A DNA stretch of 64,000 nucleotides from Catajapyx aquilonaris (taxonomy: Eukaryota): positions 1 through 64,000 of the forward strand of contig JYFJ02000422.1 in NCBI GenBank assembly GCA_000934665.2, read 5' to 3'. The notes beneath the pieces were generated by a model. The model searched no databases and was not told the DNA's origin. It was given only the letters and a program-made list of their open reading frames with translations. Below, piece after piece: positions 37,860-45,600 of this stretch. Positions within the stretch are counted from its first letter, which is position 1; every line of letters begins with the position of its first letter. Made by a program: the position numbers and the translations under genes.

Positions 37860-38910
37860 AAAAGGGGGATTCATTCATTCATTCATTCCGGTCTCAGCAC
37901 GCGAGCCCATGACGTCACGCACACCCCCATCCACCTCCTCTAGTTCCTGTTATTTTTTATCCTCCTCTTTACCCCCTTCCCCTACTCACACACATTTTCC
38001 GGTAGGCGGATATCGTGCGTGTTATTATGCGGACCCACACTCATGCCATTACTTACTGGCTGAGGGGCATACCCTTCCAGTATGTACTGCAAGGCGCGCC
38101 CTTATGCCCCGTATTTACACTTTTTAGCTGGTGCATGTAAACGGTCAGATTATATTGGCGATTAGTGACGTCGCAGGTGCTAGTCACGTTGCCCATATCA
38201 GTTCGTACTACGTGACCTGACACGAAGTCGACTTTGTACTGCACCCCCATTACATTCCGTCCATTGCTCATATGTGGTGTGATTCATTTTTGGGTGGACA
38301 TTAGTCGGTGCAAAACAGCACTTGACTCAGGGTGATCTATAAAAAAATTTAAAAATAAAAATAAAAATATCCATTTAAAGTTGTGCCGGGGTATCAAACA
38401 CAAATTCCGCAAAAAAATAAATAAGCACATTTCACTGTGTTTACAACTAATTTGAGCAGATACGCAGCCTGCATACCTAAACACCTATTATATGATCAGG
38501 ATTCGGGTAATCCATTCATTCCCTCCATGATCATAAAAAGCTGTCCGTGACATGTTCCGTTAAGCCACATAACGTGTTACAGCGAATATTGAATTCCCGT
38601 CCTGTTCCGGCCTTCGCAGAACAGGGCCTTCACTTCGCATGATTCTTCATTTCGGCGAAAAAGGGGCCGTCCCTGCACTTTATGAATGGATTGGGGTAGG
38701 GGGGGATGGGTTTGATGTTTGTTACTGGTAGGGTGGACCTTGTGATGCGTCATAACGAATCTTCTGGTTATGGGAAGTGACGGAGCAACAGGCTCAGTGA
38801 CGTCAGTTCTCAGCGCGTGCCTGTGACGTATTCGTTGCCGCAGGCCAATCGCGTCTGGCGGAAAAGGAACGGAGACGAATAAACTCCGCTCGGCGAAATA
38901 GGCCGGAATG
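37860..38910. promoter_or_regulatory. CRE-rich enhancer/promoter-like module upstream of C/EBP
   Basis: TGACGTCA at 37910 and 38798, several CRE half sites, GGAAGTGACG at 38773, CCAAT near 38845, CpG-rich. Confidence 0.55.
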
Positions 38911-40123
38911 TTGCCACTATTTTGAATTTTACCTACTTAGAAAATTCCAAAAACCTGGAATCTCGGGATTTTGGGTTCGTAGGAACGGACTGTGGGAGAG
39001 AGCAATTGTTTCAAATCGCGATTGTTTTGCAGGGTGGTCCTTGATGGTATGAATAATAATTACACATTGTAATGAAACACTGCTTTCATTATTTGTTAAT
39101 TTTACTGGACCGGGGTGTTTCCCTTTTGTGCGAACAGCCATACAATGCGTGCATGTTACTTCTTAATTTTGTGTCTCAAGTTTTGTTAAAATCTGGAAAT
39201 AATTAAGTAGTTTCAACTAAATTTTTGCGACTAATTACGGTTTAGCAATTATGTGACTATTAGTGTAGAAATCATTTTCATATTTTTTTACTTTTCCTAA
39301 TTTTTGCAAAATTCTTAAATTTTACGGTACATGATATCTTAACCAATGCTACTTATTTATTAGTTTACTGGCTTACGCCATGTGTGATGAACGACAGTTG
39401 AAATGAGCAACATTGGGATGTAACAAGAGGTATAATGGGGTGGCTTTTAGTACCAGTTACTCCCTGATTTTACAAAGCCATGCGTAGCCTGTGTACTGTA
39501 CGTACACGATGCATTGGAAGGAATATATACGTAGTAATTTTGTGCTAAAATTTTAGCGCACTTACTGCCCTGCCATTTGTAGCAATAGTAGCATTGTAAT
39601 TTATTTATAAATTTAATGCCGCATATTACAGCGCTCATTAGTGTTTCAGTGCATAAATAGCGAGCTTCCATCCTGTATAATTGGTACTATTAAAATATAC
39701 GTGTTACTAAATCAATAAAAAGTGTTAGATTCCCAGTATAGACCTGTAAGCATCGATTTCCTTGAGAGAAACAGCAGTCCAGGATGGGACATTTTACGTC
39801 GTCACAGATGTGAAGATCAATAAACCCCCATTTGTTTGTCGAGACATAAATCCGGACGCATCTTCCCATCCAGTTCCAATGAACTCACGGACTACGCAAA
39901 AGTCAGCTTATTGTATGCAAACCCCTGATAAGGGGAATCCCCCATCATCACGCACATTGGGTGCGTTTTACGTACGTTGTGGCCAGAGCCTACGTGTGTT
40001 ATCTGTTCTCCCATCCGACCCCCCCTCCACCTCCTTGAACTCCCACCACACCATACACCCACCCCTTGTAAGCCCCCAACCAACCGGGTGGGAGCCATCC
40101 CTCCCTGTTCAACTTACGCCTGG

Positions 40124-40208
40124 TGACGTAACAGTCCCCGCTAGTTGGCAGGCCTGAGTCGGTGGGCCGTCCGTTTATACTTGCTGCATTGGAGTGGCGC
40201 AGTCATTG
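40124..40208 (+). promoter_or_regulatory. Putative C/EBP core promoter: CRE-like TGACGTAA (40124-40131), TATA-like TTTATA (40174-40179), Inr-like TCATTG (40203-40208)
   Basis: About 30 nt TATA-Inr spacing, directly upstream of an ATG-free leader. Confidence 0.6.
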
Positions 40209-40455
40209 GGATCTAGGCCGCGCACGAGTACGGTCGGGAAGGCAGGAGACTACCAGACCGGTACAGCAAGGCATATACAACAACAACAACAACAAAAGAA
40301 GAAAGTGAGAGTGAGCGGGTTGCGAGTCCAGTAACGACGGCGTCTCTCCAGGAAATCCTGGCCGGACAGTGGGACAGTCGTCAATCGTGTGGTTCGCCTC
40401 CAGGCAGCGTGGCCAGTGGGAGTAGTAGCAGCGGAGTGTCCAGTTGCGGTTCACC

Positions 40456-40491
40456 ATGCCAAGCGGGCATGGAATCGCCACAGATGTATGA
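40456..40491 (+). promoter_or_regulatory. Out-of-frame upstream ORF ([11 protein letters not shown]) overlapping the C/EBP start codon
   Basis: caccATGc at 40456 is the first ATG after the putative TSS; TGA at 40489-40491; it spans the in-frame ATGs at 40469 and 40484. Confidence 0.75.
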
Positions 40492-41476
40492 TAGCTTCGA
40501 CGTCGCGAAGAAGCCCGCGGTGACGGTGACCGGGAACCACGCGCGACACGCCAAGGCAGCATCTGCGCCCTTTGCGCTCTCCGGGGACGAACTGGCGGAC
40601 CTGGCCAATCCAGAGATTTCGCTGGATCTCCAGGGACTCATCGACGACTCGCAGTTCAACGAGGGGCTCTTCCACGACTTCCTGGACAAAGGTAGCGGTC
40701 GGGGAAACAACAACAACGGGATCGTGCCTGTGCCAGTGACCAGCAGCCACTCGCCATCCTCCTCTTGCTCCTCTGTCTCGTCCTCATCCTCCGACTCGTC
40801 CTCGCCTCACACCCTGCAGCAGATACACCCATACCAACGAAACACCTTGGCGTATATGCCCCAGCCCGTACACTCGGGAGCTAGTTTCAACACCGAGGCG
40901 GCCGTGACCGTGAAGGAGGAACCACTGGAGCACCAAGAGTACAGCGCTTGCCGGCAGCAGCCAACCCCGGCTACCACGGCGGCCTTCGCACCAAACACGG
41001 GGTACAACGGCGGCTCGTACGTCGGCACCTCGTCGCAGTACAACGTCGCCCAGCACCACCACCCGCAGCAAGCTCAGCAACCTCAGCAACAGCAGCAACA
41101 GCAGCAGCATCATCACCACCACCATCACGATGCGCTGCGAGGGGTAAGCCACCAGTCCAAACTCCTAGCCAAGAAGGGCAAGCTGGTGGACAAGGGCAGC
41201 GACGAGTACAGGCGACGTCGTGAGAGGAACAACATCGCCGTTCGTAAGTCCCGCGAGAAGGCCAAGCAGCGCTCTCGGGAGACGGAGGAAAGGGTGAAGG
41301 GGCTGAGTAAGGAGAACGAGCGGCTCAACAAGCGGATCGAGCTGCTTACCGAAGAGCTGAACGTGCTGCGGACGTTCCTGGCCAATGTCGGGGTGGTGCC
41401 GGAGCAGCTCTCCAGGGAGATCGCCAAGCACCTGGAGAACTTCCAGCAGCAGCATCAGAACCTGGGCGGGATGTGA
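40469..41476 (+). CDS. C/EBP: Intronless CCAAT/enhancer-binding protein (C/EBP; slbo/CEBPA-B-like), 335 aa from the first in-frame ATG
   Basis: Starts MESPQMYD (context ggcATGg). Transactivation-box-like segment [37 protein letters not shown]-type motif VKEEP, poly-Q/poly-H tract, basic region [25 protein letters not shown] and leucine zipper. The ORF track start at 40409 is a GTG. Confidence 0.97.
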
Positions 41477-42660
41477 TGTGATCAGCCGATGGTGCGGCGG
41501 TACAGAGTGGCCTGAACAGTGCTGGCGACATTGGACCATTTATAAGCCCCGGACTGTCTGGACCGACAGCTGACGCTTGTACGGCCGCCAACACCTTTGT
41601 AGGCAGGTCAAATCTCTCAAAACCGATTCCGTCATGATTATGTGATTTGTGTGTGCGATACCCGTCCCATAAGAAAAAAAAACAAACAAAAATCCCCCCA
41701 CCCACCCAAGAACACGTAACACATACATACCACACACACACATCCCCTCCCCCCACTATTTAAAGAGAGGCAAAAGGGATTATTCAAATCATCTCATTTT
41801 TTTTTGAGGAAGTGTAGGGTTGTTACCTGTCAGCTACAGGCTGGGAGTTCAAAAGTGCTCAAAGAAAAAGGAAAGTTTAAAAAAAAAGGAACTTTGGAGA
41901 GCAGCTACTGTGCTCCCCGCTTGTACATTCCGATCAAAATAACTGATGACTATTTTTTATCGTAATTTATATCATGTAATTATTTGTTGGGTGTTTCACC
42001 ACCTGGGTGGTTGTTCATTGTTACTGGTTCCTAATAATCACATACAAGTGTGTTTTTTTTGGTGCAGATTTTGAGATGGGTAACAACCTGTTAGCAAGAC
42101 ACAGAGTTTATCACAGTGTCAGCACGATTTAAGTCAAATATTGTTAATGTTTAAAAGATCTAGGTTGTATTGTACTTCAGGAACGAAAGTGCTTGTTACA
42201 AAAAAAATATTGGAACACTGGTGCTGTTACTGGCCTGTTTTTTTCTCCTCTTTTTTGTTAACCAGACAGACTGAGAGCATCTCTACAGAAAAATAACCCT
42301 CACCTTTTTTTTAGTGATTTTGGAGGGTCTTCTGTCGAATCCATCCATTTTTTGGTCATAGAGTACTTGAAAAAATGGAAGAAAAATAGATGTGCCTGAA
42401 ATATTTACCTTTGATTTAGTAAGTAGTGTACGTTGGTTTATGTACTACATGTAAGTTTTGTAAATGAGGAATCCAGATAATCAAACTTAAATGTAGGTAT
42501 ATGAAGAGGGCAAGCCCATTGTTTTTTTGCAATGATGGGATTGACTTGTATTTATTACAAGTATTTATTTACAAATTGGCTGGTTGGGCACCATGAAAGA
42601 ATTTTAAATAAGGTGATGATGATGACAAATATATTTTGATAGGAATATGGAGACTTCTTT
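41477..42660 (+). other. Probable C/EBP 3' UTR with AU-rich elements
   Basis: U-rich; TATTTATT and TATTTATTTA at about 42549-42571; no canonical AATAAA seen, variant AATATA near 42627. End inferred. Confidence 0.45.
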
Positions 42661-45600
42661 TATTTGACCAAAAAAAATCAACCCTTTTTTTACGTCACTG
42701 TTATGTCAAGGCAACCCCTCGAAGTGGAAGTGTTTTTTTGAATGTGACGGAGCGTGACGTCGACTGGAGAGAGGATTGACGTACGAGGTCAGGGGGGGTC
42801 GTTTGGCCCCTGGTCACCCCTTGTGCAGGAAAATAGGTCATCCACGTCGGTCATCTCCCGCTCTTTTTGCGTCGCAGCTGCTTTGGCGCCTGGCCAGGTT
42901 CGACGATGAAGCTGCCAAAGTTTTCACAGCATCCTTCCCATAAGATGTCCATAACAATTCTAATGGTTGTTGATTGATTAGCTCAATTACGTGATCCAGG
43001 TAATCAAAATGTTACGTAAAAAAAATGATAGAAAAACGTGAGGCCAGTTGTGCATTTGTGGCGAGCGGCTACTTCCGATAACTGTTTTATCAGTTTTCAA
43101 ATTGGGGATATGCATAACTGCATACGAATTAAAACGGCATTGAAGGAACGTCCGTGACCTTCGCGTGTAACAGAGGGATACGAACGATGGCAGACACTTA
43201 TACCAGCTAATACGTTTGTATATGAGAAAATCTGCCTCATAAACTACGTGGTACAATCGACTTAATCTGTTGATAAGCAATTTGTAGATATGTATTATTG
43301 TTCAACCAGGCTTCCCACGCTGTCTTGAGGTAACCCTTTTTTTTTACGCGAGACAAAACGGAGTTTTACAGACGCAATCAGAAGGCCGACGTTCCTATTC
43401 AGGGACACAACCTGCGGGCTTGGAAACGTCAAACAGGCATGAAGGTCGAGGTGGACTATCAGAAGGCCAATGGACACTAGGAGGGAAAAAAAAAATATTG
43501 ATGATGATGTATCTAGAAGAGGAAGCTAGAAGAGCCTTGAGATCAAGTCAGTTATGTTTTGTAGATTCCAGGAATGAGTATCAGTCATGGGAAATGTTCA
43601 GTCGATGTTTGCCAGTTAGTCAGGCTCGATCTCAATGAATCCGGTTACAACTGCGTCCCGGATGCTGACGTCCCCTTGTCAGAGGCTTGAAAAATTGCCA
43701 CCTGAGGAGATTAGCTTAATGTAGACTGTGGCATATAGGTTGCTATGTAGTCGCTGCGCACTTTCTCTAGCTAGAGAGCAATGTATCTCCTACTACAGTA
43801 ATTTGGGGTGAGTCAATGTGACGAGGGTTTCATAGCAAATATGAGATAGTTTTTTTTTCTTGAAAAAATTATGGAGGAGAGATAACAAATTGATATAGGT
43901 GAAGGTAAATAGACGTGAGGCCATGGTGCTGATAGTTTGTTTCCTGTACGCTCAACGTCTACTTTGCATCAATTTGTGTGCATGTATGCTTATCTACGCG
44001 TTGAAATTTGATAATGACTTCACGTAACCTGGATTCACTCAAACGGCCTTCAGGTCGGTACATGTGTAGTTATGAGACTATACAGGTTATGTAGATACGT
44101 CTAACCATAAATTAGTATGTTATTCGGATTGGTACAACGATATTTAGTTCGATGTTCATTTGAATCGATATTCCGATTTTTTGAGGTCTCTCGCAGTTGA
44201 AGGTACTAAACCTAAACGCATCAACAGAAAGTACGACACGGCGAATAAATCGTGCCCCGTGGCTGGGCAGTCATGATACCCCCGCATTTAGCTCCACCGC
44301 CGTGCTGCCAATACACAGGACACTAACAGTTGGATGGCATCCACAACATGTGTTCCATAATAAGATAAAACAAGAAGCTTGCCTCCGTGCCTGATTGCTC
44401 ATTGGCGTTTCTTGCAGGTCGCCACCTCCGCATTTTTGCCGGGTCGTAAACAAATGGGGGAGGGAGNGGATAAGTCATGGGATACATGGAACTCGGTGGT
44501 CGGCACGTGTACACTAAGTGCAGGCATAGTTTCTAGCTCTACTCCAATGACCCGAAGGCGAAAATGTCAAACCTGTAGTGCATCCGAATCATCTCGGTGT
44601 CTCCTTTTGCCGGCATGTGGATGGGATAACTTACAGGTAGTGGGAGGTGGGGTAGGGGGTGGGGGGGAACATAATCCGGACACTGACAGCATCAGGTCGA
44701 CGGCTGAGGAATATGCGGCATTGATTATTTTGCAGGGAGCGTGCGCTTATGTAACTCATACTGTACGACTATAAAAGGGACTTCCAGGTAATTTCTCCGG
44801 AGAAGTTGCGCAATAGCGCATTATAGTTGCTTAGAAATGATGTGCCTTTTATATTAATTAGTGCTGTTCAGCTCCATAAAATTAGGGTGAAAAACGTAAT
44901 TTTAAAAAAACTATGTATTGTGCGGTATTTTGAAATATGGATAATATATTTTCTGAATTTCACATGATCAAGAGTTATTAGCTCTTGGTATTACTACAGC
45001 TGCACACAGACATACTGTATCGAATTTTTGTTTTTGATGTCAATGTTCGATATTTTATATACGCAATTTTGAATATATCGAATTTATGAAATAAGGATTT
45101 GATATGTGGAGAATTTCATATTGCTCATCTCTAGTGAATCCCTAATGACCGTACCATAGTCTGGTGAACATTTCGGAATAACTGAAGTGCACATTTAGTA
45201 TCCCAGTGAATTTGGCAATCAAATTCTCCTGTAGCATATTGCAGCTAGACATTATTTCACTTAGTGGGCCAATTAGCTTTCATTTTGCCAGCGAACCAAT
45301 CTTGTCTCCAACAGTGCAGCGTCTCCATTGAACGGGCAACGAAACCCACAGGACTTAGCATCCCTCCTCACTTAATTAGCGCCTACCTGTAGTCGTCGAG
45401 AGTGCATGAAATAATGAAGTCCTGAGAAGCGTGCTGACAACATTAACGAGCGGTTTTCAAACTTTTTCTCCACTTTTTTCACCAAATTTTCCTCTCTCTG
45501 CCGGTACAAGAGTTTAATTGGTATCCGCTTTTTCATGCTTGGTTTACCCCATTACATGCGCACGTGTGTGTGCCTATGGAATAGAAGCAGACTTGTTACA

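Follow-up and report, generated by a model that had tools for sequence, protein, structure and literature searches.

An overlapping upstream reading frame conserved among arthropod C/EBP genes suggests a multi-start control layout akin to that of vertebrate CEBPA and CEBPB

Does an arthropod C/EBP gene choose among its start codons as vertebrate CEBPA and CEBPB do, with a small open reading frame upstream (uORF) that would divert some ribosomes from the full-length activator to a truncated product? The question is raised by a 64,000-nucleotide (nt) stretch of the Catajapyx aquilonaris genome (assembly GCA_000934665.2, contig JYFJ02000422.1, positions 1 to 64,000; hereafter the window), for which an initial annotation had proposed a vertebrate-style switch with re-initiation at an internal methionine. 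The gene concerned is a single uninterrupted, intronless open reading frame (ORF) on the forward strand (40469..41476) that encodes 335 amino acids (aa). A Pfam search of this protein returned the bZIP_2 domain (PF07716, E 6.6e-15) at aa 244-296 (41198..41356). We found 770 relatives at E<=0.001, the top match being 47% identical and the best named ones being insect and springtail C/EBPs; the searched collection thus contains no closely related sequenced arthropod. In an alignment of 28 C/EBP orthologues the basic region is invariant, and Met6, Tyr7, E-I-S-L-D-L-Q-x-L-I-D-D, A-Y-M-P-Q-P-V-H and V-K-E-E-P are invariant or nearly so; the stretches M-E-S-P-x-M-Y-D and E-I-S-L-D-L-Q-x-L-I-D-D have aligned counterparts in named insect C/EBP proteins. 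Within V-K-E-E-P (40910..40924), which we take to be a SUMO-type consensus, K149 and E151 are invariant and P152 nearly so. Because of the bZIP_2 match, the 770 relatives and the conserved N-terminal, activation, A-Y-M-P-Q-P-V-H and V-K-E-E-P motifs, we identify the product as a C/EBP (slbo-type) bZIP transcription factor of an arthropod.

The uORF opens at the upstream ATG (uATG; uAUG in the transcript) at 40456 (ttcaccATGc), which precedes the main AUG by 13 nt and lies in frame +2 when the main ORF is taken as frame 0, and runs on the forward strand for 11 codons to a TGA at 40489-40491 (40456..40491, 36 nt including the stop). It spans the in-frame ATGs of both Met1 (40469) and Met6 (40484), and its stop codon starts 20 nt past the A of the main AUG, with a TAG following at once in the same frame (40489-40494). 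On re-reading, the coordinates and peptide that the initial annotation had given for this uORF, as well as its course over both in-frame ATGs, proved correct. The uAUG has A at -3 and C at +4, and the main AUG (gcgggcATGg) has G at both positions. The stop itself is embedded in the main-frame codons ATG TAT GAT for Met6-Tyr7-Asp8 (40484..40492), where TAT-GA makes the uORF TGA and, at 40488, a frame +1 ATG. This ATG, overlooked at first, shares letters with the uORF stop (ATGA) and is the start of an 11-codon ORF (40488-40523); such a frame +1 ORF arises wherever the codons read TAT-GA and is 7-42 codons long among the relatives.

Past the uORF stop, the next ATG in any frame is that of Met130 at 40856..40858 (gcgtatATGc), in the motif A-Y-M-P-Q-P-V-H (40850-40873); starting there would give a protein of 206 aa, as the initial annotation had also read it. 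The 364 coding nt in between (40492..40855) have no ATG in any frame and encode the activation-domain motif Glu41-Leu72 (40589-40684), which is conserved in the 28-protein alignment. Judged by motif positions, the 206-aa form would indeed keep V-K-E-E-P and the bZIP domain and lack the N-terminal activation motif. On the other side of the uORF, 542 nt upstream of the uATG are free of any ATG (5.6 expected, P=0.0005), so that the uATG would be the first AUG of any transcript starting within that stretch. Within 39916-40455 there are also a TATA-like TTTATAC (about 40173) and a (CAA)n run (40268-40307). One uORF in a leader is commonplace, and we consider the pattern to be beyond chance because of the comparison with relatives, not because of the window alone.

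For this comparison, metagenome contigs were scanned with protein alignment, and 567 pattern matches were reduced to 119 confirmed relatives, 80 of which were retained as loci. At 46 of the 80 loci, both the N-terminal motif (M <=9 residues before [MLFI]-Y-[DEP]) and upstream DNA were present. The other 34 (L009, L011, L018, L024-27, L032, L033, L035, L038, L044, L045, L047, L049, L051, L056, L057, L061-67, L070-75 and L078-80) were left out, as their N-terminus lay off the contig, as introns split them, as they were other bZIP genes, or as the anchor was unmatched. Two full-length loci among them were inspected later, L011 having an overlapping uORF and L025 having none. Near-identical loci were merged by hand (L003/4, L005-8, L012-14, L015-22, L036/39/40 and L054/55), which resulted in 32 lineage representatives including the window, labelled by their best named protein match. 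They comprise hexapods (L001, psyllid-like; L005, attine ants; L010, L015 (termites); L028 and L030, springtails), copepod-like lineages with Tigriopus as best match at 48-55% (L002, L003, L012, L023, L034, L042, L046), mites and a spider (L037, L041, L048, L052, which is 99.8% Tyrophagus, L053, L054, L058, L059, L060, L069), arthropod-like lineages without group label (the window, L029, L031, L036, L043, L050), spiralian-like lineages whose best matches are bivalves and Lingula (L068, L077), and one vertebrate-like C/EBP (L076). For L036 and L068 the protein atlas label is only 'Arthropoda/Chordata C/EBP'.

A conserved out-of-frame ATG in relatives had been suggested as a check, and the outcome was positive. 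In 22 of the 32 lineages, chelicerate-, copepod-, termite- and spiralian-like ones among them, a frame +2 ATG lies 7-40 nt before the main AUG and opens an ORF that overlaps that AUG, the overlap being part of how these 22 were defined. Dinucleotide shuffles of the 60 nt upstream gave an expectation of 7.4 such overlapping frame +2 uORFs versus the 22 observed, with 0/2000 reaching 22 and a Poisson-binomial tail of 6e-9. A frame +1 uATG was found in 4/32 lineages versus 6.3 expected. By clade, the overlapping uORF is present in 2/6 hexapod, 4/7 copepod-like and 7/10 chelicerate lineages, in all six arthropod-like lineages without group label, the window included, and in the spiralian-like (2/2) and vertebrate-like (1/1) ones. 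In seven lineages, the window, L031, L034 and L050 among them, the uATG sits at -13, and the uORF is 8-20 codons long in 20 of the 22 (L001 has 77 codons and L029 has 38). As for initiation context, the uAUG has a purine at -3 in 19/22 lineages and G at +4 in only 4/22, while the main AUG has G at +4 in 28/32. Such a pattern would be expected if some ribosomes must leak past the uAUG.

The peptide encoded by the uORF is a different matter. We considered a conserved uORF peptide and rejected it, since the main-frame codons that overlap it determine its C-terminal half and the remainder varies. The initial annotation had pointed out that the uORF of CEBPA begins MP as does this one, a likeness that carries no weight with only 4 of the 22 uORFs beginning MP.

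Other small uORFs were seen in the same set of leaders. The attine ants (L005-L008) have a three-codon in-frame uORF, M-C-E-stop, which stops 3 nt short of the main AUG and does not differ among the four loci. L053 has TAG immediately behind its uATG, making a one-codon start-stop. Two mite lineages (L041, L052) share a second conserved uORF of eight codons in frame +1, located 44-50 nt before the main AUG and preceding the overlapping uORF.

The end of the uORF recurs as well. Sixteen of the 22 uORFs terminate at the same TGA, formed where the Tyr codon TAT meets the G-A that begins the next Asp/Glu codon. In 18/22 uORF lineages this Tyr is written TAT, versus 41/157 (26%) of the other Tyr codons in the same genes (Fisher 7e-7). 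In the lineages without the uORF, by contrast, TAT occurs at this Tyr in 3/10 versus 20/69 elsewhere (P=1). The window itself has TAT at the uORF-stop Tyr and at 1/7 of its other Tyr codons. A synonymous choice in the main frame is thus tied to the presence of the uORF, and it is difficult to account for this without a translated uORF whose end point matters. These codon counts point to selection acting on the uORF stop codon.

A stop fixed at this very place could also be understood in another way, namely that the uORF hands the 40S subunit back to Met6 (or Met1), a few nt upstream of the TGA, and so works as a coupling device, not as a diverter. The TGA does lie 5 nt after the A of the Met6 AUG, Met6 is invariant across the 28 hexapod-type proteins, the stop is kept there in those 16 uORF lineages, and the Met6-equivalent is the only N-terminal AUG in L046 and L069. 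Yet chelicerate and some other lineages that have Leu or Phe before the Tyr keep both the TAT-GA stop and the uORF; because Leu or Phe replaces Met in those lineages, the uORF stop is conserved there with no AUG adjacent to it. Backward re-initiation after a cellular uORF is, moreover, inefficient. We therefore regard such a hand-back as very unlikely.

The coding sequence downstream of the uORF provided a further sign. In the stretch from the N-terminal motif to the V-K-x-E motif, out-of-frame ATGs total 28 for the 22 uORF lineages versus 73.6 expected from codon-order shuffles or 51.1 from synonymous shuffles, and 0/2000 shuffles of either kind came out as low. The ten lineages without the uORF have 39, versus 43.0 or 32.8 expected from the respective shuffles. 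Downstream out-of-frame ATGs are thus depleted only in lineages that possess the uORF. As to which ATG comes first past the uORF stop, it is the conserved M-P Met in 5/22 lineages (the window, L001, L041, L048, L069), and in another 3/22 (L036, L043, L068) this Met is preceded only by a one-codon ATG-stop. A different in-frame ATG comes first in 5/22 (L015, L029, L052, L058, L077) and likewise in the vertebrate-like L076; L037 has no ATG at all past the uORF stop. Met130 is present in 26 of the 28 aligned proteins, with Ile in the two others, and an M-P located a few tens of residues before V-K-x-E is also found in Limulus, a spider, Lingula, the annelid Owenia and two gastropods. By this comparison, the internal Met sits in a motif conserved far beyond hexapods.

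Upstream of Met1, the main frame is open and reads (V/I)-T-T-A-S in 12 lineages, termites, mites and the spider among them (the window, L015, L029, L037, L041, L048, L050, L052-54, L058, L069); in the window the motif is GTA ACG ACG GCG TCT, V-T-T-A-S in the main frame of the forward strand (40331..40345). The Thr codon before Ala is ACG in 12/12 of these lineages versus 37/211 of the Thr codons in the same genes, and this conserved ACG has G at +4 and a purine at -3 in all 12, the window having A at -3. Among four mite lineages, 17 codons from the motif onwards differ at codon positions 1/2/3 in 6/6/57 cases, and their leaders show 48 synonymous versus 10 non-synonymous codon differences in frame 0, compared with 2/53 and 4/51 in the other two frames. 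The mite leader thus bears a coding signature in frame 0 with no in-frame AUG. L059 has ATG in place of the ACG and L060 has ATG directly before ACG-ACG, and both are without the overlapping uORF; overall, an in-frame upstream AUG occurs in 7/10 lineages without the uORF versus 5/22 with it (Fisher 0.018). The ACG at 40337-40339, which would add 44 codons to give 379 aa, is likely a near-cognate start of an extended isoform.

In the copepod-like loci L002-L004 and L012-L014, an in-frame upstream AUG opens a conserved extension of 45-70 residues. Inside this extension lies a small frame +1 uORF, nine codons long in L002-L004 (MPSSLAWLS / MTSSSVWLS).

Possible translation of the leader raises the concern that the uATG might be a mere by-product, an accident of a Cys codon (TGY after a codon ending in A) in the N-terminal extension. 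The uATG does read x-Cys (or x-Trp) in frame 0 in nearly all lineages, and the leader appears to be coding in that frame at least in mites. However, the ATG is kept even though different residues precede the Cys (Pro, Ala, Ile, Glu, Val, Arg) and its spacing ranges from -7 to -40; nor would a Cys residue explain the selection of TAT at the uORF stop or the linked depletion of ATGs. Chance or by-product accordingly strikes us as scarcely probable at all.

Taken together, three independent signs of selection, all of them read from the sequences, stand out: the frame of the uAUG, the stop codon of the uORF and the AUG-free zone downstream. In the reading that we lean towards, scanning ribosomes would first meet the ACG at 40337 in its good context, rare use of which would produce the extended isoform, and then the uAUG at 40456, whose middling context would open the 11-codon uORF in the +2 frame. 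The main AUG would be reached only by ribosomes leaking past the uAUG, and these would start at Met1 or Met6 and make the 335-aa activator. Ribosomes translating the uORF would instead bypass both N-terminal AUGs and stop at 40489-40491, at the TGA within Met6-Tyr7-Asp8; because the uORF is short, they could resume scanning through 364 AUG-free nt, a distance long enough to reload initiator tRNA. Re-initiation at Met130 (40856) would then yield the 206-aa form, which would have the bZIP domain and lack the N-terminal activation motif and would likely be an antagonist, like C/EBPalpha-p30 or C/EBPbeta-LIP. Inferred are the translation of the uORF, the re-initiation at Met130, the repression by the short form and any mTORC1 or eIF2alpha control. 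The comparison of lineages makes a conserved and selected uORF layout well supported, and a short-isoform switch is plausible. For the whole, a conserved and selected control layout in the C/EBP leader with up to four starts, including re-initiation at Met130, we would put the chances slightly above even.

Several observations pull the other way. The overlapping uORF is missing in 10/32 lineages, ants and springtails among them; the 32 representatives were hand-picked and treated as independent, and their lineage labels are provisional. In this gene alone the AUG-free stretch is no more than chance: its 369 nt gave P=0.014 in 2000 dinucleotide shuffles, but with the protein kept the probability of no ATG is 0.28 (5000 codon-order shuffles) or 0.16 (5000 synonymous shuffles), and because of these codon-aware values we rejected any significance claimed from the window alone. 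An out-of-frame ATG comes first past the uORF stop in 7/22 lineages (L023, L031, L034, L042, L046, L050, L054). The context of the Met130 AUG is weak, with T at -3 and C at +4, as the initial annotation had cautioned; it is weak at the equivalent AUG in all lineages, being fixed by the Tyr-Met-Pro codons. That annotation had also called for a conserved internal Met, which holds for the 28-protein alignment and for the motif beyond hexapods and fails where the motif Met is replaced by Leu, Ile or Val, that is, in the copepod-like L002, L012, L023, L034, L042 and L046 as well as in L029 and L037. Five lineages without the motif Met keep the uORF, and ATGs are not depleted there (L023, L029, L034, L042), from which it follows that the uORF can exist without an isoform switch. 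As Met130 lies within a conserved peptide motif, its conservation might be due to protein function.

Much of this would suit a simpler role, in which the translated uORF is a gate or attenuator on the full-length protein, as are many uORFs of the overlapping kind, setting the dosage of C/EBP or tying it to start-codon stringency or stress, and Met130 is an ordinary residue with no important short isoform. Copepod-like lineages that have Leu or Ile for the motif Met and retain the uORF with no ATG depletion are what an attenuator would leave, as are the weak Met130 context throughout and a motif conserved as peptide. An attenuator does not, however, predict a depletion of out-of-frame ATGs that is specific to uORF lineages (28 vs 51-74, compared with 39 vs 33-43 where the uORF is absent). 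In addition, uORFs as short as 8-20 codons, the length in all but two of the 22, favour re-initiation, and an in-frame Met is the first ATG past the stop in 13/22 lineages, counting the three with a one-codon ATG-stop in between. We hence consider attenuation with no short isoform unlikely, though by some way the most serious of the alternatives to a layout that includes re-initiation at Met130.

The continuity of the locus was examined with a public run, X1, whose library kind is unrecorded. One 2203-nt contig of X1 is collinear with 40413-42613 on the forward strand, with 0 other letters and 0 gaps. Because this contig is gapless, the uATG, the ORF and 1.1 kb downstream lie in one intron-free piece. 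No X1 contig falls on 38500-40412 or 42614-44000; such boundaries would fit a transcript-derived assembly and are not taken as evidence, and contig ends of X1 cannot place a transcription start or poly(A) site. X1 is the sole run listed for the C/EBP stretch, and no RNA run is listed as covering it.

As for the surroundings, the gene region has 56% G+C versus about 40% around it, and a Gln/His-rich tract lies at about 41050-41130. The 64-kb window is gene-poor, C/EBP being its only ORF of >=130 aa with a Pfam match; ten other long ORFs in the window gave no Pfam match. (TAA)n arrays occur at 606-681 and 1029-1383. An Rfam scan of 39800-42800 returned only a sub-threshold chance match (GibS, 27 vs 115 bits), located outside the leader.

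In vertebrates, CEBPA gives rise to an extended isoform from CUG (GUG in humans), to p42 and to a truncated p30 made by re-initiation (PMC12507421, PMC11109482; citing Calkhoven et al. 1994, 2000). Its six-codon uORF, '+2 nt out of frame', stops 7 nt short of the p42 AUG (PMC12507421, PMC11109482). CEBPB produces LAP*, LAP and LIP, and its uORF of 36 nt terminates 4 nt ahead of the LAP AUG (PMC11109482, PMC5986274). The uORF layout has been called conserved 'throughout vertebrate evolution' and shared only by CEBPA and CEBPB (PMC11109482, PMC12507421, PMC5986274). The ratio of long to short C/EBPalpha/beta set through the uORF has been studied as a connection between nutrient signalling (mTORC1), metabolism, cancer and, in mice and killifish, lifespan (PMC5986274, PMC12507421). 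In human cells the short CEBPA isoform is promoted by DENR/MCTS1, and DENR-MCT-1-dependent re-initiation after short uORFs occurs in Drosophila (Schleich et al. 2014, as cited in PMC11109482); ATF4 is mentioned in the same source (PMC11109482).

In a literature search of limited scope, in which the spelling 'C/EBP' was unsearchable and the supplementary tables of PMC7530721 lay outside, we found no description of an invertebrate C/EBP uORF layout and no link of DENR-MCT-1 to C/EBP/slbo. The covered main text of conserved-uORF surveys, including the animal survey PMC7530721, contains neither CEBP nor slbo, and the word 'invertebrate' does not occur in the covered part of PMC12507421. Within these limits, the layout is undescribed in invertebrates. 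We tentatively propose that the protostome-deuterostome ancestor, in its single C/EBP gene, already had the whole multi-start layout, with a near-cognate extended start, a +2 uORF, a main AUG and an internal AUG giving a truncated antagonist, and that this layout would still operate in arthropods and spiralians, with an ACG start and a uORF stop within the Tyr-Asp/Glu codons; we rate this as somewhat less than an even chance. If the uORF logic is ancestral to bilaterians, it would predate the alpha/beta gene duplication and be open to study in genetically tractable or short-lived invertebrates, and arthropod C/EBP N-terminal annotations would be incomplete, missing an ACG-initiated extension and a possible short antagonist. 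The locus would also illustrate how synonymous-codon selection can preserve a regulatory stop codon within a conserved protein motif, of relevance to translational control and C/EBP biology alike.

How close, then, does the arthropod gene come to the known systems? Like CEBPA, it is intronless, with a short +2 uORF beside the main AUG, a putative in-frame near-cognate start upstream in good context and an internal in-frame AUG downstream of the activation domain, from which the short form would retain the bZIP domain. Unlike in CEBPA, where a uORF of six codons ends 7 nt ahead of the main AUG, the 11 codons here overlap that AUG and end 20 nt inside the ORF, and the upstream start, as read from the sequence, is ACG instead of CUG/GUG. 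In common with CEBPB, a similarly long out-of-frame uORF is situated between an in-frame start further upstream and the main AUG, and a truncated product is predicted here to come about via re-initiation; the upstream in-frame start of CEBPB, however, is AUG, and its uORF does not overlap the main AUG. The copepod-like L002-L004 and L012-L014, where an in-frame AUG is followed by the small frame +1 uORF, come closer to the LAP*-uORF-LAP order of CEBPB.

Systems of the ATF4/GCN4 type have overlapping inhibitory uORFs with delayed re-initiation. As in these, the overlap would make translation of the uORF and of the main ORF mutually exclusive; unlike in these, there is a single uORF here with no 'positive' one ahead of it, and a second protein isoform is proposed as the output in place of on/off control. 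DENR-MCT-1 of Drosophila would be plausible arthropod machinery for re-initiation after a uORF of 8-20 codons. The vertebrate-style switch of the initial annotation stands as regards a layout that is conserved and selected, and has to be amended in its geometry: compared at the sequence level, the arthropod gene appears to have the same parts, the same order and the same uORF frame as vertebrate CEBPA and CEBPB, but its uORF overlaps the main AUG, where those of the vertebrate genes end before it.

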